A model generated the notes under the pieces. It did no database searches, was not told the DNA's origin, and saw only the letters and a list, made by a program, of their open reading frames with translations. Shown here piece by piece: positions 2,598-16,979 of a DNA stretch of 32,000 nucleotides. The stretch's first letter is position 1; each line of letters begins with the position of its first letter. A program made the position numbers and the translations under genes. The stretch comes from Alphaproteobacteria bacterium. Lineage in GTDB: Bacteria; Pseudomonadota; Alphaproteobacteria; Rs-D84. The stretch covers positions 330,001 to 362,000 of the forward strand of contig JAFVFD010000005.1 of the NCBI GenBank assembly GCA_017475605.1, read 5' to 3'.

Positions 2598-2630
2598 ACC
2601 CTTGGCGGTGGTGTTTTGTTTTGTAATAAT

Positions 2631-2661
2631 AAGACCGTCAAGCGACGGTCTTGTTTATTTA
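2631..2661 (+). terminator. Intrinsic terminator or attenuator hairpin between rplT and pheS
   Basis: AAGACCGTC-aagc-GACGGTCTT (9-bp stem, 4-nt loop, 2631-2652) followed by GTTTATTTA. It ends 24 nt before the pheS ATG. Confidence 0.7.
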
Positions 2662-2676
2662 TAAAAGGTACAAGTT

Positions 2677-5951: not shown

Positions 5952-5981
5952 AAAAAATACCGGCTTTTGCCGGTGTTTTTT
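5952..5981. terminator. Bidirectional intrinsic terminator, repeat-family copy 1 (pheT vs nth)
   Basis: AAAAAAT-ACCGGC-tttt-GCCGGT-GTTTTTT. An A-run lies on one side and a T-run on the other, at a convergent gene junction. Confidence 0.8.
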
Positions 5982-6636
5982 ATATTTTTTTATCTTTACA
6001 TTCGCACCATTTTGCAACGGGACATTCACCGCACTTTGGGCTTATTGCCCGACAGATATATCGCCCATGTAAAACCATAACATGATTTACAATCGCGTGA
6101 TATTTTTTCGGAATAACAGTTAATAACTTTGCCTCGACTTTTTCAGGTGTGTTTTCCGCATCACCGACCCAGCCATATCGATGCGCGTTGCGAAAAACAT
6201 GTGTATCAACACCAATGTTTGGTGCGCCCCACAAAACATTCATAATAACATTTGCGGTCTTTTGCCCGATGCCAGGCAATTTCATAAGTTCATCGCGATT
6301 ATGATATTTTTTTGGAAATACCCATTGGTTATTATCCGTCTTGTATTCGGCGAGTTTTTCAGATAATGCAAAAATATTTTTCGCCTTGTTATTAAAAAAT
6401 GATATTTGTGAAATATATTTTTTAATTCCATCAATACCCAACGCCACCATTTTTTCAGGTGTTGGTGCCGCGGCAAATAATGCAGGGGTTACTTCGTTGA
6501 CCTTTTTATCGGTGGCCTGGGCCGACAAAATTACCGCGACCGCAAATGTGAATTCGTTGGTATGTGTTAATTCAGAACGAATTTCCATATTTATGGATTT
6601 TGGGACCACGGTAAAATATCTGTCGGGTGTAATCAT
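5980..6636 (-). CDS. nth: Endonuclease III (DNA glycosylase/AP lyase)
   Basis: 218 aa with an HhH-GPD core (LSAQATDKKVN, LPGIGQKTANV) and a C-terminal 4Fe-4S cluster loop, C-x6-C-x2-C-x5-C (CRAISPKCGECPVAKWC). Its ATG overlaps the ileS stop (TAATG). Confidence 0.93.
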   Translation of the reverse strand: MITPDRYFTVVPKSINMEIRSELTHTNEFTFAVAVILSAQATDKKVNEVTPALFAAAPTPEKMVALGIDGIKKYISQISFFNNKAKNIFALSEKLAEYKTDNNQWVFPKKYHNRDELMKLPGIGQKTANVIMNVLWGAPNIGVDTHVFRNAHRYGWVGDAENTPEKVEAKLLTVIPKKYHAIVNHVMVLHGRYICRAISPKCGECPVAKWCECKDKKI

Positions 6637-9600
6637 TATATCTTTTCAATTGTGATTGCAAACGCATAGCCTTCGATTTCGGTTTTGTATTCGCCGATAC
6701 CTGTTTCCATTTCACGAATCAGCGCATCGCGCATAATACGTTTTTGGTGTGCGCGAATCGCAACATCCAGTCCCGGGTCCGCAGAATACACTATCTTGAT
6801 TCGGTCGGAAACATCCAGGCCGATTTCTTTGCGTGTATCCTGGATAAAGCGCAGCGCATCGTTCGCCAACCCTTCGGCAACCAATTCGGCATTGATTTCT
6901 GTATTCAACACCACAACCGCGGTATTATCTGGTAATGCCGCACCGGTTATACCATCACGCATGGTAAGGCGCATTTCAAATTCATCTGGTTCCAGTGTAT
7001 ATTCGCCGACAATCAATTTATTACCATCGATTGTGTAATTGCCGGATTTTACCGATGGAATAATCTTGCTTAATGCACCACCCAGACGCGCGCCAATCTT
7101 TGGCGTAATTAAATACACAAATGAATCAGCAACGTCGGCAGTGTTCGCGCGGAACTTAACATTTTTCACATTTAATTCATCGGCAATGATATCAACATAT
7201 TCCGACAAATCGGCACCAGCAATTGTCATGTCAGACAACGGCAAACGATTACGCAATTTATATTGTTCGCGTAATTGTTTTCCGGTTGATACAACCATTT
7301 GCACACGACGCATATCGTTTACGATTTTTTCATCCGTTTCTTTCGCCATCGGAAAATCGGTCAAATGCACAGATTCCGCACCCGTCAGATTCTTGTAAAT
7401 ATATTCACTTATAAACGGTGCAAACGGCGCCAATGCGCGACAAAGCGTGGTTAAAACCACATACAATGTGTTAAACGCTGACTGGTCTTCGTCCCAGAAA
7501 CGCGCACGCGACCGGCGAATATACCAATTGTTTAATATGTCCAGGAATCGTACAAACTCTTTTATTGCAACATCTGGTTTGTATTCGTCAAGTGCTTCGC
7601 CAACCGTTCTAACCAACACATTTAATTCAGATAAAATATATTTATCCAATGCGTTTTGTGAAGACGCATCATCGGTCGCGGTGATGTTGCCCGCGTTCGC
7701 ATACAGTGTAAAGAAATGATATGCGTTCCAAAGTGGCGTTAAAATAGTTTTAATTGGTTCGCCAAAAACTTTACCTTCTTTATCCATACAAATTGGTTCG
7801 GCTTTCATAAAATTACTGCCCTGGATAAACAGACGAATTGCATCTGCACCGTATGTTTCAAATGAATCACTTGGGTCAGAATAGTTGTGTAATGATTTAG
7901 AAAACTTGCGTTTTTGTTCGTCCAATGCCATACCATTCGCAGATACTGTTTTGAACGCGGGTTTATCAAACAATGCCACCGCCATAATCATCAATGCATA
8001 GAACCAGCCACGGGTTTGATCCTGGCCTTCGATAATATAATCTGCGGGGAATGTTGCGGCAAATTTATCTTTGTTTTCAAATGGGTAATGCAAACGCGCA
8101 AACGGCATAGAACCACTTTCCACCCAGCAATCAAGAACATCACTTATGCGTTTCCAGCCATCGCGTTCCAATTTATCCAATGTTGGTCGGTGTAAATCAT
8201 CAATTTTTGTACCAAAGAATTCTTCCATTTCCGCTATTGAACCGAATACCTTGTATTCGCCATTTCGTTCCCAAATTGGTAATGGTACACCCCAAAAACG
8301 ATTACGCGAAATACCCCATGGGCGTGCGCCCTCGATCCATGACAAGAAACGATTTCCCGCTGATGTCCATGTTGTGTCGCGTTTTGTAATTTCAACAACA
8401 CGGTCACGGATTTTTGGCACATCAATATACCACGCATCCGTTGCACGATAGATTAATTTTTCATGGCTGCGCGGGCCAAATGGATAACTGTGTTTATGTT
8501 GTGCCTTTTGTACCAGGCGCCCGTTTTGTTTCAACCAATCGATAATTTTTGGGTTTGCGACAAAAATATTTTCACCAGCCCAATCGGTCACGGTCGCATC
8601 AAAATTACCATAGTCATCAACATTTAAGATAATCGGGAAAGACGAATCAACATTACGTGCGGCGATATAGTCATCTTCACCAAACGCGGGCGCAATATGC
8701 ACGATTCCCGTGCCATCACCGTCCGATACATAGTCCGCACCGATAATGGTGTGCAGTGATTTATTTTCCGCATGCATATTTGCATAATAATCAAATATCG
8801 GTGTATAGCGCATACCGATTAAATCGGCACCCATAACTTCGCCAACGCGTTCCGCATCGGCAAAAACTTTGTCATAGGCTTTTAAACGCGATTCCGCCAA
8901 AACATATACATGGCCGTCCGCGTGACGCATACGAACATATTTCATTGTTGGGTTCACCGCCAACGCAGAATTTGCCGGCAATGTCCACGGTGTTGTTGTC
9001 CATGCAATTGCACGGTCACCATTTTCCAGTTCAAACCAAACGGTCACTGTATCATCAACAATATCTTGATATTCGCTTGACGCTTCGGAATTAGACAAAA
9101 CTGTTCCCAATTTCCAATCGTATGGGTTTACCTTGAAATCTTTATACAACAAACCCCGGTCATATAACTGCTTTAATGCCCAGATAACAGATTCCATGTA
9201 ATTTTTATCCATGGTGCGATAACCATATTCGTTACCACCATCAACCCAACGACCAATGCGTTCAATATAGTATAACCATTCGTTTGTATATGTTAATACA
9301 TCAGCGCGGCACATTTCACAAAAATCGCCAATGCCAGATTCTGCAACAATATCCTTGGCACTTTTGTTTTGCTTTTTTTCAACACTGTTTTCAGCCGGCA
9401 ATCCATGGCAATCCCAGCCCAGTTCACGTTCCACATGAAAACCACGCATAGTTTTATAGCGTGATACCATATCCTTTATCGCAGATACCCCTAAATGTCC
9501 CAGGTGTGGCAATCCGTTTCCAAACGGTGGCCCGTCATAGAACGAAAACGGATGTCCCAATTTGGTGCGATTCAACGATTTATGAAAAGTATCATCATCG

Positions 9601-9671
9601 CGCCAAAACGCCATTATTTCGCGTTCAATCTGCGGAAAGTTTGCTTTTGCATCGGTCTTTGGATATGCCAT
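6636..9671 (-). CDS. ileS: Isoleucyl-tRNA synthetase, long type-2 (eukaryote-like) form
   Basis: 1011 aa. It carries a class I HIGH motif (PHLGHLG in FYDGPPFGNGLPHLGH), a KMSKS motif as KFSKSLHNYSDP, and a CP1 editing insert (TTTPWTLPAN). Confidence 0.95.
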   Translation of the reverse strand: MAYPKTDAKANFPQIEREIMAFWRDDDTFHKSLNRTKLGHPFSFYDGPPFGNGLPHLGHLGVSAIKDMVSRYKTMRGFHVERELGWDCHGLPAENSVEKKQNKSAKDIVAESGIGDFCEMCRADVLTYTNEWLYYIERIGRWVDGGNEYGYRTMDKNYMESVIWALKQLYDRGLLYKDFKVNPYDWKLGTVLSNSEASSEYQDIVDDTVTVWFELENGDRAIAWTTTPWTLPANSALAVNPTMKYVRMRHADGHVYVLAESRLKAYDKVFADAERVGEVMGADLIGMRYTPIFDYYANMHAENKSLHTIIGADYVSDGDGTGIVHIAPAFGEDDYIAARNVDSSFPIILNVDDYGNFDATVTDWAGENIFVANPKIIDWLKQNGRLVQKAQHKHSYPFGPRSHEKLIYRATDAWYIDVPKIRDRVVEITKRDTTWTSAGNRFLSWIEGARPWGISRNRFWGVPLPIWERNGEYKVFGSIAEMEEFFGTKIDDLHRPTLDKLERDGWKRISDVLDCWVESGSMPFARLHYPFENKDKFAATFPADYIIEGQDQTRGWFYALMIMAVALFDKPAFKTVSANGMALDEQKRKFSKSLHNYSDPSDSFETYGADAIRLFIQGSNFMKAEPICMDKEGKVFGEPIKTILTPLWNAYHFFTLYANAGNITATDDASSQNALDKYILSELNVLVRTVGEALDEYKPDVAIKEFVRFLDILNNWYIRRSRARFWDEDQSAFNTLYVVLTTLCRALAPFAPFISEYIYKNLTGAESVHLTDFPMAKETDEKIVNDMRRVQMVVSTGKQLREQYKLRNRLPLSDMTIAGADLSEYVDIIADELNVKNVKFRANTADVADSFVYLITPKIGARLGGALSKIIPSVKSGNYTIDGNKLIVGEYTLEPDEFEMRLTMRDGITGAALPDNTAVVVLNTEINAELVAEGLANDALRFIQDTRKEIGLDVSDRIKIVYSADPGLDVAIRAHQKRIMRDALIREMETGIGEYKTEIEGYAFAITIEKI

Positions 9672-9691
9672 TTGTTTTACCCTTTATTTAT

Positions 9692-9716
9692 AAAAAACGG
9701 GCGCCCCACGCGCCCC
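9692..9716 (-). terminator. Intrinsic terminator 20 nt upstream of the ileS ATG (proposed attenuator terminator)
   Basis: The minus strand reads GGGCGC-gtggg-GCGCCC (an all-GC 6-bp stem, 9715->9699) and then G-TTTTTT (9697->9692). Confidence 0.7.
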
Positions 9717-9743
9717 AGCCACCGCCAAAGCGCAGTTGCCTGT

Positions 9744-9776
9744 TTATCTAATAATAATTATCGTGTCCATTTTCAT
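9744..9776 (-). CDS. Candidate ileS leader peptide MKMDTIIIIR
   Basis: ATG AAA ATG GAC ACG ATA ATT ATT ATT AGA TAA on the minus strand. Four consecutive Ile codons sit 9 nt upstream of an antiterminator/terminator pair. The SD is weak, and this is a hypothesis. Confidence 0.4.
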   Translation of the reverse strand: MKMDTIIIIR

Positions 9777-9790
9777 TTATTTTACCAATC

Positions 9791-9866
9791 TGGTGCCGGT
9801 GATAGGACTTGAACCTACGACCCCCTCATTACGAATGAGATGCTCTACCAGCTGAGCTACACCGGC
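9791..9866 (-). tRNA. tRNA-Thr (anticodon CGU), CCA encoded
   Basis: The reverse complement GCCGGTG-TA-GCTC-AGCTGGTA-GAGC-A-TCTCA-TTCGTAA-TGAGG-GGGTC-GTAGG-TTCAAGT-CCTAT-CACCGGC-ACCA folds as a 76-nt cloverleaf. The anticodon loop is TT-CGT-AA. Confidence 0.93.
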
Positions 9867-9990
9867 AACAGCCCAAGTTTATACCATCTTTTTGCCAATT
9901 TCCAGTATTAAATTAGGCGATTTTGGGTTTTTTGTCGTATGGTGTTGGTGTGTGTGGGGGTGCTATGTTTTTCATATATTTGGGGGCAAA

Positions 9991-10649
9991 ATGCATATCA
10001 ATTTTATGATTTATGGAATTATGGTAATAAAACTGGTTATGGCGATTGTCGCGGCGGTTGTATTTATGCGCCTTTTTACACCATCGGGGACACTTAAAAA
10101 CATGACACCGTTGGCGGTGATTATAAACTTTTGTTAAGTGCGATTTTGTCCGAGTTTATTTTGAACAAAAGTATAAATATTTCCGAATTCATTATCGTTA
10201 TTTTGATATATGGCATATTAATAAGCATATTAAACCGCTTTGCGTTTTATACTGATGTTGGGCATCGTATCTTTATCGGCGATCCAATGGTTATTATTCA
10301 AAACGGGCAAATTGATGTTAATAAAATGGAAAAATTGAAAATATCTGCGCGTGATCTGGCGGTTGCGATGCGGCAACATAAAATACACAGTTTGCGTGAA
10401 ATTGAAATGGCACAAATTGAACCGAACGGCGAATTAACAATCGTGAAACGCGGTGAAAAGAAATATTCGGTTGTTGTGATTGATAATGGCGATATAGATG
10501 AAAGCGCGTTACAGAAAATAAATCGTTCTGAAAAATGGCTGCGCACGCAGTTGCGGAAAAAGCGAATTCGCGATATTGAAAATATCTTTGTTGCCCAGTG
10601 GCATAACGGCAAATTAAAAATAGTTAAAAAAGATGCCGGCAAAAAGTAA
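9991..10649 (+). pseudogene. YetF-family DUF421 membrane protein, interrupted by a 1-nt frameshift near 10129-10137
   Basis: Track ORFs 9892-10137 and 10131-10649 are the two halves of one protein: ...NMTPLAVIINF|LLSAILSEFIL...IFIGDPMVIIQNGQIDVNKMEKLKISARDLAVAMRQ...IEPNGELTIVKR. This matches the B. subtilis YetF pattern as I recall it. The N-half ends at TAA 10135-10137 and the C-half frame is open from 10107. The likely start is ATG 9991, preceded by TGGGGGCAAA. Confidence 0.8.
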
Positions 10650-14713: not shown

Positions 14714-16699
14714 TTACCCCATATATTTTTCACCGATTTTTGCGTCGGTATTCAGTTCAATAATTTCATTTGCATTATCGCCCGCGCCTAATTCCGCCGC
14801 ACTGCACATCATGCCATAACTTTCAATGCCTGCAACTGTGCGTTGTGAAATAGGCTTTTTTTGCCCCGGAAGAACACAACCAACCGGTGCCAAAACACCA
14901 ATCATTCCGGCGCGTACATTTGGCGCACCACATACTATTTGTAAATCGCGTGTTCCGTCGTTCACCGTAAGTATGTGCAGGTTTTCGCGCCCCGCGTGAT
15001 TTTTTACATCAACGATTTTTGCGACAACAGGCACAATTTTATTTTCGTCTTTTGGTGCGTATTTTTCGGTAAGTTTCGCGACCGTTTCGTCGTCAATGCG
15101 GTTAAACAGGTTTTCCGGTACCACAAATTCTTCACCATCATTGATGCGTGATTCGAAATGTTCCGGCCATGATAAATCATGGTTGCCCGCGAATATGTTT
15201 TGCATCTTTGTCGCCGCATCCGGTATGAACGGTGCAGACACGCGCGCATATAAATCAATTAATTGGAAACAGGTATTAAGGACCGCGCCGGCCGCCGCCA
15301 TATCGCCATTTTTCACCAGTGTCCAAGGCTCGTTAACAGTCATATATTCATTACCGATTGCATACAGCGAACGCAGCGCAACAATCGCCGCACGGAATTC
15401 ACATGCATCCAACGCAGTTGTCAATTCAGTGATTTTTTCGTTTACTTGATTGACCAAATCTGAATCAAGTTTGGTTGCCGCCGGGACCGCGTTTCCAAAG
15501 TTTTTCGCGGTCAATTTACATACGCGCGAAACAAAGTTCCCCAACATTCCATTAAGGTCTTTATTCACGACATCGGCGAAACGCGCAAATGTAAAATCGT
15601 TATCGTCTGTTTCAGGGGCCGATGCCATCAACGCATAACGCCACGCATCACTTGGTGCGATTGAAATTGCATCTTCCAGGAAAACACCACGTTTTTGCGA
15701 TTTAGAAAACTTGCCACCTTCAAAATTCAAAAAGTTCATAGATTTAAGCATATCAACGGTTTTCCAACCATCGTGCATTGCCAACTGTTGTTCCGGGAAA
15801 AACACCGCATGAAACTTCACATTATCTTTGCCCATAAATTGCGCATAGTATGTGTCGTCATTTTTCCACCAATCCGCCCAATTTTTATTTGCCGCCATTG
15901 AAATCGAAACATAGCCCCATGGCGCATCAAACCATACATAAAAAACTTTATTTTCATACCCAGGCTTATTTACTGGAATACCCCATGGCAAATCGCGGGT
16001 AATAGATGTGTCGTGTAATTCATCCGCCGCCCAGCCACGCGCGATGGCACCCGCCGTCTTTGACCAATGTGGTGCGTGTGTGGACAACCATTTGCGCCAT
16101 TCGTCCTGTAATTTAGATGCCAAGAAAAACAAGTTTTTCGTTGGGCGCATTTCAATATTTGTTGAACCAGATATTGTGGAACGCGGGTTGATAAGTTCGG
16201 TTGCCTCGTACGTTGCACTGCAATTATCGCATTGGTCGCCACGTGCCTTTTCATAGCCGCACTTGGGACATGTACCAACTAACTGTCTGTCCGCAAGGAA
16301 CATTCCGTCATCAACCGAATATGGTTGTATTGTTTCGCGTTCTTCTATTAACCCCTGGGCATCCAGGCGGGTAAATAAATCATGTATTAAATCTTCCTGT
16401 AATTTGGTGTGCGTGCGTCCATATAAATCAAACGACAGGTTAAAATCGCGCACAGCACGCAAATGTTTTTCATAATATTTGTTGTTATATTCAATAACAG
16501 GCAGGCCTTCCTTTGCCGCACCAACAACGGCGGGTGTTCCATGTTCGTCCGCGCCACATACAAACAATACATCGCGACCGCGCGCACGACAGAAACGTGC
16601 ATATACATCACTTGGCAGCCAGCACCCAACAAGATGCCCCAGGTGTAATTCACCGTTCACATATGGTAATGCCGATGTAATCAAATATTTCTTTGCCAT
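14714..16699 (-). CDS. metG: Methionyl-tRNA synthetase with C-terminal tRNA-binding (Trbp111/EMAP-like) domain
   Basis: It has a HIGH motif (GELHLGHLVG), a zinc knuckle (CPKCG...CDNC), KMSKS as KFSKSQKRG, and a C-terminal IVCGAPNVRAG...GIESYGMMCS. The track ORF extends to 16777. I prefer the ATG at 16699 (MAKKYLITSALPYVNG), which follows GGGGCAAACA. ATG 16711 is an alternative. Confidence 0.95.
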   Translation of the reverse strand: MAKKYLITSALPYVNGELHLGHLVGCWLPSDVYARFCRARGRDVLFVCGADEHGTPAVVGAAKEGLPVIEYNNKYYEKHLRAVRDFNLSFDLYGRTHTKLQEDLIHDLFTRLDAQGLIEERETIQPYSVDDGMFLADRQLVGTCPKCGYEKARGDQCDNCSATYEATELINPRSTISGSTNIEMRPTKNLFFLASKLQDEWRKWLSTHAPHWSKTAGAIARGWAADELHDTSITRDLPWGIPVNKPGYENKVFYVWFDAPWGYVSISMAANKNWADWWKNDDTYYAQFMGKDNVKFHAVFFPEQQLAMHDGWKTVDMLKSMNFLNFEGGKFSKSQKRGVFLEDAISIAPSDAWRYALMASAPETDDNDFTFARFADVVNKDLNGMLGNFVSRVCKLTAKNFGNAVPAATKLDSDLVNQVNEKITELTTALDACEFRAAIVALRSLYAIGNEYMTVNEPWTLVKNGDMAAAGAVLNTCFQLIDLYARVSAPFIPDAATKMQNIFAGNHDLSWPEHFESRINDGEEFVVPENLFNRIDDETVAKLTEKYAPKDENKIVPVVAKIVDVKNHAGRENLHILTVNDGTRDLQIVCGAPNVRAGMIGVLAPVGCVLPGQKKPISQRTVAGIESYGMMCSAAELGAGDNANEIIELNTDAKIGEKYMG

Positions 16700-16726
16700 T
16701 GTTTGCCCCATTATTGTTATCGCCCC

Positions 16727-16754
16727 ATTATAGAATAAAAATGACAGAAAGCAA
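16727..16754 (-). promoter_or_regulatory. Putative sigma-70 promoter of the metG operon
   Basis: The minus strand reads TTGCTT-N16-TATAAT, 27 nt upstream of ATG 16699. Confidence 0.5.
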
Positions 16755-16771
16755 GAAAACCGAAAATAATA

Positions 16772-16799
16772 TTGCAATCAGATTTTTCTTTGTTATAAT
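16772..16799 (+). promoter_or_regulatory. Putative sigma-70 promoter of the tRNA-Val unit
   Basis: TTGCAA-N16-TATAAT, with the -10 element ending 12 nt before the first (decayed) tRNA-like copy. Confidence 0.55.
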
Positions 16800-16811: not shown

Positions 16812-16886
16812 GGGTGGTTAGCTTAGTTGGAAAGCCGCGTCACGTTGACATTGTTGTGGTCGTTGATTCCCGGCGCGAGAACACCA
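16812..16886 (+). pseudogene. Decayed tRNA-Val-like copy (pseudo-tRNA)
   Basis: It shares GGGTGGTTAGCT.AGTTGG, CGTCACGTTGACAT and GGTCGTTG with the tRNA-Val 91 nt downstream. However, the D-stem (GCTT/GCCG), the T-arm and the 3' acceptor strand (GAGAACA vs ACCACCC) no longer pair. Confidence 0.6.
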
Positions 16887-16902
16887 GAAAAGCAAAAGTT
16901 TT

Positions 16903-16979
16903 GGGTGGTTAGCTCAGTTGGCTAGAGCGTCACGTTGACATCGTGGAGGTCGTTGGTTCGAGCCCAATACCACCCACCA
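16903..16979 (+). tRNA. tRNA-Val (anticodon GAC), CCA encoded
   Basis: GGGTGGT-TA-GCTC-AGTTGGCTA-GAGC-G-TCACG-TTGACAT-CGTGG-AGGTC-GTTGG-TTCGAGC-CCAAT-ACCACCC-ACCA folds as a 77-nt cloverleaf. Confidence 0.93.

Follow-up and report, generated by a model that had tools for sequence, protein, structure and literature searches.

The 32,000-nucleotide stretch of contig JAFVFD010000005.1 analysed here, referred to as the window, carries on its minus strand a gene for tRNA-Thr, a 119-nt intervening region and ileS, the gene encoding isoleucyl-tRNA synthetase (IleRS). The intervening region holds a ten-codon open reading frame (ORF) with four consecutive isoleucine codons, followed by three overlapping helices: an anti-antiterminator hairpin (P1), an antiterminator (AT) and a terminator (T). 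It is likely that this element is a transcription attenuator of the ribosome-mediated, leader-peptide type, by which ileS is controlled in response to charged tRNA-Ile. A preliminary description, made from this sequence alone, had placed the tRNA gene, the mini-ORF, the motif UGCGCUUU, the terminator hairpin and the ileS start codon correctly on the minus strand; its proposal of an Ile-codon leader with an antiterminator/terminator switch on ileS is supported by comparative data, P1 being the piece that it had missed. The features of the locus are as follows.

9905 to 9878, minus strand: predicted promoter for the tRNA-Thr/leader/ileS transcript, with a −35-like CTGGAA (9905-9900) and a −10-like TATAAA (9883-9878)
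9866 to 9791, minus strand: tRNA-Thr, anticodon CGU, CCA end encoded (ARAGORN; Rfam tRNA, 70 bits)
9776 to 9744, minus strand: leader ORF ATG AAA ATG GAC ACG ATA ATT ATT ATT AGA TAA, encoding MKMDTIIIIR-stop
9761 to 9750, minus strand: regulatory Ile codons 6-9 of the leader, ATA ATT ATT ATT
Between leader ORF and terminator hairpin, minus strand: post-stop segment ACAGGCAACUGCGCUUUGGCGGUGGCUG
9742 to 9716, minus strand: P1, CAGGCAACUGCG / CGGUGGCUG, from the minimum free energy (MFE) and centroid folds
9734 to 9727, minus strand: UGCGCUUU, within the antiterminator 5′ strand
9734 to 9709, minus strand: AT, 11 bp, UGCGCUUUGGC-GGUG-GCUGGGGCGCG, the MFE structure of the truncated transcript
9715 to 9699, minus strand: T, GGGCGC-GUGGG-GCGCCC, then G and a run of six U (9697-9692), from a terminator scan
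9671 to 6636, minus strand: ileS, coding for 1011 aa (NCBIfam TIGR00392, E=2e-225)
5980 to 6636, minus strand: nth, in stop/start overlap with ileS (NCBIfam TIGR01083)

The CCA end of tRNA-Thr is separated from the leader ATG by a spacer of 14 nt, and the end of the terminator U run from the ileS ATG (9671) by 20 nt, which contain the Shine-Dalgarno sequence AAAGGG (GGG at 9682-9680). The CTGGAA and TATAAA boxes are spaced by 16 nt, and transcription is predicted to start about 4-5 nt 5′ of tRNA-Thr; a generic sigma-70 scan of the window did not list this promoter. According to its Pfam domains, the IleRS of the window is a type-2 enzyme with DUF5915. The synthetase gene forms a pair with nth, and control by the attenuator probably extends to nth as well. 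Taken alone, the 119-nt region is unremarkable (MFE −27.6 kcal/mol, z = −1.58 against shuffles). Four ATT/ATA codons in an AT-rich spacer are a weak signal in a single sequence; judged from the comparison of sequences across relatives, chance is excluded.

Relatives were collected by a metagenome scan with the first 300 IleRS residues, which yielded 80 loci at 66-93% identity and provides the comparative set. A scan of GTDB genomes with an IleRS alignment added L005, L006 and L016 to the metagenome loci; it returned mostly distant Actinobacteria, one of its back-translated patterns being generic for type-2 IleRS, and the only close loci among its results were L004, L005, L006 and L016. The leaders of the related loci comprise 66 distinct sequences. 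The exact IleRS protein of the window is present only on metagenome contigs, its nearest named relatives being found in metagenome-assembled genomes (MAGs) labelled "Alphaproteobacteria bacterium" and in Candidatus Enterousia, and the related contigs stem from gut metagenomes, human and other. The element belongs to an uncultured alphaproteobacterial lineage that is host-associated and Enterousia-like.

A ten-codon ORF is found 66-90 nt upstream of ileS in 75 of the 84 related loci, and 64 of the 66 distinct leaders share the form start-x4-I-I-I-I-x-stop with K, R or E at codon 10. Within these 64 ORFs, isoleucine occupies codons 6, 7, 8 and 9 in 62, 64, 64 and 63 cases, respectively, the start codon is ATG in 62 and GTG in 2, and the stop codon is TAA in 61. 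Variation at codons 6-9 is nearly all synonymous and confined to the third position (ATA/ATT/ATC); codons 2-5, rich in K, N, T and Q, and codon 10 are variable at all three positions. Since the Ile run varies synonymously, as an untranslated RNA motif would not, this pattern argues for selection at the level of translation, and the leader ORF is, on the evidence of its codons, under codon-level selection. Codon 6 is ATA in 59 of the 64 ORFs, as compared with 21% of the Ile codons in 12 window genes, and ATC is under-represented at codons 7-9. The avoidance of ATC suggests an extra constraint, either a C/G-free stretch or the sampling of both tRNA-Ile isoacceptors.

A covariance model consisting of the ORF, P1 and T (model R1) gives one match in the 32-kb window. 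Among the metagenome loci it gives exactly one match per locus in 78 of 80, with no second match in 338 kb; the matches always lie directly upstream of ileS or of a GNAT-ileS pair, and loci outside the training set (L158, L154 and L006) are matched as well. The two metagenome loci that are negative at the threshold used are L115, which ends at the contig edge, and L148, which is without a leader. No match was found upstream of the distant type-2 ileS genes of Actinobacteria and free-living Alphaproteobacteria among the loci searched. When positions 9300-10300 of the window were compared with all Rfam families by cmscan at E up to 10, tRNA and noise alone were returned, and there was no match to the T-box (RF00230) or to the amino-acid leader families (Thr, Leu, His, Trp, Phe and others). 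The element defines its own RNA family, represented by model R1. The conservation of mini-ORF and stems among relatives, proposed as a check in the preliminary description, is thereby found in the large majority of loci.

In 16 of the 84 loci, the window included, the CCA end of tRNA-Thr lies at most 45 nt upstream of the leader ATG, which leaves no space for a promoter between tRNA and leader. These tRNA-fused loci carry a ACTGGAAAT box and a −10-like element just upstream of tRNA-Thr, and in one group of non-fused relatives the ACTGGAAAT box stands directly upstream of the leader ORF. The arrangement supports co-transcription of tRNA-Thr, leader and ileS from a promoter upstream of the tRNA in the window lineage. 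Expression of ileS by read-through from the tRNA-Thr promoter had been postulated from the window sequence, and the −35 box that the relatives carry upstream of the tRNA in fused loci is in agreement with it; with such read-through, one terminator would serve both the attenuator and the tRNA-Thr gene. The preliminary description had further argued that there is no room for a promoter after the terminator; among relatives, the stretch that follows the U run shows no promoter conservation. An internal promoter in TTTTTTATAAAT, 3′ of the terminator, was considered and rejected for lack of conservation among relatives. A conserved promoter is located immediately upstream of the leader in 51 distinct loci that have no tRNA next to it (−35 CTTGAT or CTGGAA, a spacer of about 17 nt, −10 TATAAA(T), TAGTAT or TAAAGT), and its −10 box ends 6-8 nt before the leader ATG. 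With standard −10-to-start spacing, the ORF would thus begin at, or within 1 nt of, the 5′ end of the transcript, and to judge from this spacing the leader ORF of most relatives is probably leaderless. Further placements of the tRNA gene were seen: in L091 and L099, tRNA-Thr(CGU) is found on the other strand, some 190 nt upstream of ileS and pointing away from the leader promoter, and in L005 on the same strand, upstream of the leader promoter. Because three different arrangements occur, tRNA-Thr(CGU) can be called a recurrent neighbour of the ileS leader.

The comparison of fold energies and the search for compensatory stem changes, both suggested in the preliminary description, yield −14.1 kcal/mol for T, about −16 kcal/mol for AT and about −11.4 kcal/mol for P1, with compensatory changes present in all three helices and sparse in AT and T. 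Helix positions are indexed from the first nucleotide of the leader stop codon (index 0, window 9746). RNAalifold on a MAFFT alignment found T alone, and P1 and AT were specified by hand. T (index 31-47) has an all-GC stem and is recovered as the consensus structure, with 99.4% of alignment cells paired; in two sequences, U-A stands in place of one C-G pair. AT is the MFE structure when the transcript ends just before the 3′ arm of T, with U12-C22 pairing to G27-G37; an antiterminator had been predicted before as a helix of 8 bp, and the truncated-transcript fold extends it to 11 bp. Its 3′ strand contains the 5′ arm of T, so that AT and T are mutually exclusive. Over the 66 sequences 96% of AT cells can pair; at the closing position 30 sequences have U-A, 22 have U-G and 5 have C-G, and in the upper stem G-U is replaced by G-C or A-U. 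By our own reading of the sequences, the top of AT is rebuilt in L155 as GCAG/CUGU. In L087, a change of the shared strand from GGGGCGC to GGGGCGU (GCGC to GCGU) is accompanied by matching G-to-A substitutions in both the AT 5′ strand and the 3′ arm of T; given these linked changes in both partner strands, L087 retains both competing helices.

P1 (index 4-14 with 21-30) lies wholly downstream of the leader stop codon. It takes up the AT 5′ strand together with the top of the AT 3′ strand and thus excludes AT while being compatible with T. Across the relatives 80-82% of its cells are paired, two-sided changes occur at 3-4 pairs, and the observed paired fraction was reached by 0 of 500 shuffles, so that P1 has moderate support. 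The conserved GGCAC 3′ of the leader stop has no role in AT or T and is accounted for by P1 only. At equilibrium, P1 plus T (about −25 kcal/mol) is more stable than AT (−15.8 kcal/mol); before the 3′ arm of T is made, AT is more stable than P1. The 3′ strand of P1 is transcribed 7 nt ahead of that of AT, so that P1 can form first. The direct-path barrier from P1 to AT is about 15 kcal/mol on free RNA (medians, 66 sequences) and falls to 11.7, about 8 and 6 kcal/mol when 6, 9 and 12 nt, respectively, are masked from the start of the stop codon. As modelled, these energies fit a kinetic three-hairpin attenuator. A long-range helix in which UAUUAAA of the Ile/Lys codons would pair with UUUAAUA at the end of the U tract appeared in the consensus; it is absent in the window and was dropped.

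The mechanism that we favour would operate as follows. Transcription would start at the CTGGAA/TATAAA promoter upstream of tRNA-Thr or, in most relatives, at a similar promoter 6-8 nt before the leader ATG, and the nascent RNA would encode the peptide MKMDTIIIIR. On free RNA, P1 would form first and trap the AT 5′ strand, T would form, and transcription would terminate 20 nt before ileS. When Ile-tRNA is scarce, the ribosome would dwell at the end of the Ile run, where its leading edge may cover or fray the 5′ strand of P1; with P1 blocked, AT would form and RNA polymerase would read into ileS. When Ile-tRNA is plentiful, the ribosome would reach the stop codon, fray the base of AT and be released, whereupon P1 and T could form. 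P1 is probably also a pause hairpin that synchronises polymerase and ribosome, like the trp 1:2 hairpin. The outcome would be homeostatic control of IleRS. We infer both the direction of the switch, from stalling to read-through, and its kinetics. The attenuator reading as such is supported by the conservation of the ORF codons, the conservation of AT and T, the specificity for positions upstream of ileS, and the promoter upstream of the tRNA.

Several observations weigh against this reading or parts of it. AT and most of T are near-invariant, so that covariation rests on few events; the outermost P1 pairs are poorly conserved; and in the tRNA-fused arrangement the leader ATG has no Shine-Dalgarno sequence. 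The geometry of the ribosome raises the main difficulty. If the footprint is taken to extend 12 nt downstream from the first A-site nucleotide, a value uncertain by about 3 nt, a ribosome at Ile6, Ile7 or Ile8 ends at −3, 0 or +3 of the stop codon and leaves P1 intact, and a ribosome at Ile9 ends at +6, where P1 still has −9.6 kcal/mol; only a ribosome at Ile9, at codon 10 or at the stop codon reaches P1. Equilibrium masking favours AT only at leading edges of +9 to +13, where the A site holds codon 10 or the stop codon. The classical direction would, in this model, need either a footprint longer by 2-3 nt or pause synchronisation; helicase fraying at the mRNA entry site could supply the longer effective footprint, and Ile9 would then be the decisive codon. 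The distance from stop codon to AT 5′ strand is 7-9 nt in almost all relatives, and a terminating ribosome therefore masks P1 but just 0-2 nt of AT. With the leading edge at 12 the median probability of T, P(T), is 0.8, and under a terminating ribosome AT falls to −11.3 kcal/mol in two typical relatives, L096 and L099, close to the family-median T of −11.6 kcal/mol. The preliminary description had assumed that a ribosome stalled on the Ile run frees the antiterminator strand and that one at the stop codon masks it: the geometry of this scheme proves too simple, given the 0-2 nt of AT that the stop-codon ribosome covers and given that a ribosome stalled at Ile6-8 falls short of P1. Calibrated on known leaders, the masking test gave a shallow dip only for Escherichia coli trpL, correctly placed at the Trp codons, and no dip for hisL. 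Being weakly informative on trpL and uninformative on hisL, equilibrium folding cannot decide the direction of the switch.

The same parts could be wired differently. In a translation-dependent or timer-like attenuator, antitermination would need a ribosome standing on either the final sense codon or the stop codon at the moment polymerase arrives at the terminator, and the Ile run would only set the ribosome's time of arrival, such that a moderate shortage of Ile-tRNA leads to arrival within the permissive window and a severe shortage to termination; in an inverse version, efficient leader translation would turn ileS on and stalling would turn it off. The position of the AT-permissive edges, at +9 to +13 with codon 10 or stop rather than Ile6-8 in the A site, points in this direction, as does the 7-9-nt spacer that lets a ribosome at the stop mask P1 and at most 0-2 nt of AT. 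We nevertheless consider such an arrangement rather unlikely: as a mere timer, the Ile codons would have no need of their place at the ORF's 3′ end, which is nevertheless conserved, the footprint is uncertain by about 3 nt, and the masking test is weak on trpL and uninformative on hisL. To our knowledge, moreover, every characterised cognate-codon leader (trp, his, pheST) induces upon stalling, and the inverse logic would impose positive feedback on an essential synthetase, which is implausible. A similarly small chance is given to a variant departing from the trp scheme in which the ribosome is parked at the end of the ORF (at the last Ile codon, codon 10 or stop), the Ile run acts as a delay line, and/or the terminated leader RNA acts in trans as a small RNA. 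The A/U-only regulatory codons lying outside all helices are in keeping with a delay line, and the terminated leader RNA is of near-invariant sequence and would in the window lineage be released as a 3′ trailer of tRNA-Thr; the terminated leader rnTrpL of Sinorhizobium reportedly acts in trans as a small RNA. Arrest by the nascent peptide, of the Erm/Cat type, would instead require that the IIII stretch (residues 6-9) stalls the ribosome with Ile9 in the P site in response to a small molecule or antibiotic, and that the arrest opens AT. The ribosome position most favourable to AT does have Ile9 in its P site, the A site being occupied by codon 10, and in ErmCL arrest occurs at codon 9 on a motif of similar length, IFVI. 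This explanation appears highly improbable, as the synthetase under control is exactly the one for the amino acid repeated in the leader, a match that amino-acid sensing accounts for directly, residues 2-5 and 10 are free of constraint, extensive interaction with the tunnel is beyond so short an ORF, and no resistance gene lies downstream.

Nor does a structured RNA sensor with an incidental ORF, whether T-box-like or an operator for IleRS or another protein, account well for the data. The near-invariant GCGCUUUGGCGGUGGCUGGGGCGC could serve as its binding site, the AT region is conserved beyond the needs of pairing, its GGUGG is reminiscent of the T-box core, and the exact 10-mer TTGGCGGTGG recurs upstream of pheS (2602-2611); three overlapping helices, however, suffice to impose a strong sequence constraint, and the synonymous-only variation of the ORF is explained by translation alone. 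There is no match to T-box or any other Rfam family at E up to 10, no stem I and no specifier structure. Pairing of the GGUGG loop, as a T-box UGGN, with the NCCA end of a tRNA was examined and rejected, as the UGGC of the loop mismatches an ACCA end (the discriminator base is wrong), GGGG loops occur in six distinct relatives and no Rfam match exists. Such a sensor is accordingly very improbable. Least credible of all, and close to negligible, is the notion that nothing regulatory is present, merely a plain tRNA-Thr terminator, a chance ATT run and a separate start of ileS transcription downstream. It is true that a terminator comes after the tRNA gene, that the fold of the region as a whole does not significantly exceed shuffles in stability, that L148 has tRNA-Thr, a plain terminator and ileS with no leader, and that the end of the U run and a TATAAAT-like string overlap. 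Yet the ORF and all three helices occur with their own promoter and no adjacent tRNA in 51 distinct loci, the ORF is conserved at the codon level, what follows the U run shows no promoter conservation (it reads, e.g., CAATGC in many relatives), and just 20 nt, Shine-Dalgarno sequence included, are left before the ileS ATG.

If the element is a leader-peptide attenuator, as preferred here, E. coli trpL is among its closest known counterparts. The two share a three-hairpin topology, with P1 in the role of 1:2, AT in that of 2:3 and T in that of 3:4. Between the last regulatory codon and the antiterminator 5′ strand lie about 17 nt in the trp leader and 16-20 nt in the ileS element. In trp, segment 1 overlaps the Trp codons, so that a stalled ribosome masks segment 1 fully, and about 2 nt separate the stop codon from segment 2; in the ileS element, by contrast, the Ile codons are A/U-only and cannot join a helix, P1 follows the stop codon, and a gap of 7-9 nt lies between the stop and AT. 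E. coli pheM-pheST likewise combines a short leader rich in cognate codons, alternative hairpins and an intrinsic terminator just before the synthetase gene with a negative feedback logic via charged tRNA. The two systems differ in that no sequence relationship exists between them, the ileS leader has 10 codons rather than 14 with its four regulatory codons contiguous, the anti-antiterminator lies wholly downstream of the stop and does not overlap the regulatory codons, and the leader is leaderless or tRNA-fused and has no Shine-Dalgarno sequence.

Leader peptides with cognate codons have been established or predicted for pheST (pheM), trpS, leuS, hisS paralogues and cysS (PMC1262725, PMC2965389, PMC4007540). 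Among these, the leaderless leaders of Deinococcus deserti, of which 14 are reported, such as the 10-aa Cys-containing cysS leader, resemble the present element in that ORFs of 10 aa stand at the transcript 5′ end upstream of aminoacyl-tRNA synthetase genes and attenuation is predicted (PMC4007540); they belong to another phylum and are unrelated in sequence. The ileS gene itself is controlled by T-boxes in Firmicutes and Actinobacteria (PMC1262725). Such riboswitches act on the same gene in response to the same signal, the charging of tRNA-Ile, and in Firmicutes by a choice between terminator and antiterminator. They differ in that uncharged tRNA is sensed directly, with no translation involved, and the element described here has neither the structural features of a T-box nor an Rfam match to it. 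No description of an Ile-codon attenuator of ileS was found in the searched literature, subscription-only papers (e.g. Vitreschak et al. 2004) lying outside its coverage, so that the novelty suspected in the preliminary description holds for the searchable literature. The sole precedent found for an ileS leader is CCNA_03934 of Caulobacter crescentus, labelled an ileS leader CDS, mentioned in passing as a negative control and uncharacterised (PMC4117421). It resembles the present element in that, again in an alphaproteobacterium, a small ORF stands upstream of ileS, its translation being seen by ribosome profiling, and differs in being described without sequence, Ile content or structure (PMC4117421). 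The Caulobacter ileS product has about 969 aa as compared with the 1011-aa type-2 enzyme of the window; a lipoprotein signal peptidase gene follows ileS there, and a riboflavin kinase/FMN adenylyltransferase gene lies two genes upstream. From size and neighbours we infer an enzyme of the E. coli-like type.

Departures from the common arrangement were seen among the relatives. In L006 (1-642) the attenuator is truncated by the contig end; after it comes a 190-aa ORF, the stop codon of which overlaps with the ATG of ileS. Judged from its sequence, this ORF encodes a putative GNAT-like protein, and the attenuator would control the GNAT-ileS pair; NCBIfam holds a separate model for IleRS fused to a GNAT domain. 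L154 (1740-2000) is a divergent relative, of termite type or other. Its leader, MINKTIIIIEN, is 11 codons long, two of them following the Ile run; its antiterminator is rebuilt as CCCCGA...UCUUGGGG, and the attenuator is separated from ileS by a second GC-rich hairpin region. In L148 (about 1860-2003), tRNA-Thr is followed by a plain terminator, AGCGACGC-UAAA-GCGUCG with seven U, and by ileS 20 nt further on, with no leader ORF, antiterminator or obvious promoter; this locus has lost the leader, and its ileS appears to depend on terminator leakage. Four loci from gut alphaproteobacterial MAGs with IleRS of 45% identity (L007, L009, L010 and L011), none of them matched by R1, possess unrelated ORFs about 90-170 nt upstream of ileS (locus positions about 2330-2420) that all end in I-I-I-P-stop. 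There, AT(C/T)-ATC-CC(T/C)-TAG/TAA-GGGGAT forms a small hairpin across the stop codon and is followed by a U-rich tract, which may represent an independently evolved Ile-codon leader of ileS of another design.

Elsewhere in the window, the rplT-pheS spacer (2598-2676, plus strand) contains TTGGCGGTGG (2602-2611), which equals the top and loop of the ileS antiterminator; no further exact copy was found in the window beyond these two sites. The spacer has a strong terminator, GACCGUC-AAGC-GACGGUC (region z = −3.2), ending about 15 nt before the pheS ATG. No convincing Phe-codon leader was found upstream of pheS, a weak ORF, GTG GTG TTT TGT TTT ..., having two Phe codons, and pheS is a second synthetase operon standing directly behind a terminator without a convincing leader. 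At 16812-16890 (plus strand), beside tRNA-Val(GAC) at 16903-16979, lies a degenerate second copy that was not called by ARAGORN and is probably a decayed tandem tRNA-Val gene; it is situated just upstream of metG and divergent from it. The longest form of the metG ORF (14714-16777, minus strand) starts with TTG at 16777. NCBIfam alignments begin at residues 26-32, and the true start is probably an ATG near 16711, the longest ORF being over-extended.

What has been found is probably a textbook trp/pheM-type device on ileS, a new family kept across a group of uncultured gut Alphaproteobacteria. As the type of mechanism is textbook, the conceptual surprise is modest; what distinguishes the element is a leader that is leaderless or tRNA-fused and a set of helices all downstream of the stop codon, the latter a trait that recommends it for testing kinetic models of how ribosome and polymerase are coupled. 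About 66 distinct sequences constitute a clean RNA family ready for an Rfam-type model, and natural variants, namely leaderless leaders, tRNA-fused leaders with a shared terminator, insertion of a GNAT gene after the attenuator, and loss of the leader, are available for studies of attenuation. The regulation of ileS is poorly understood outside the phyla that use T-boxes, and with this element the IleRS gene would join the short list of synthetase genes under cognate-codon leader peptides.

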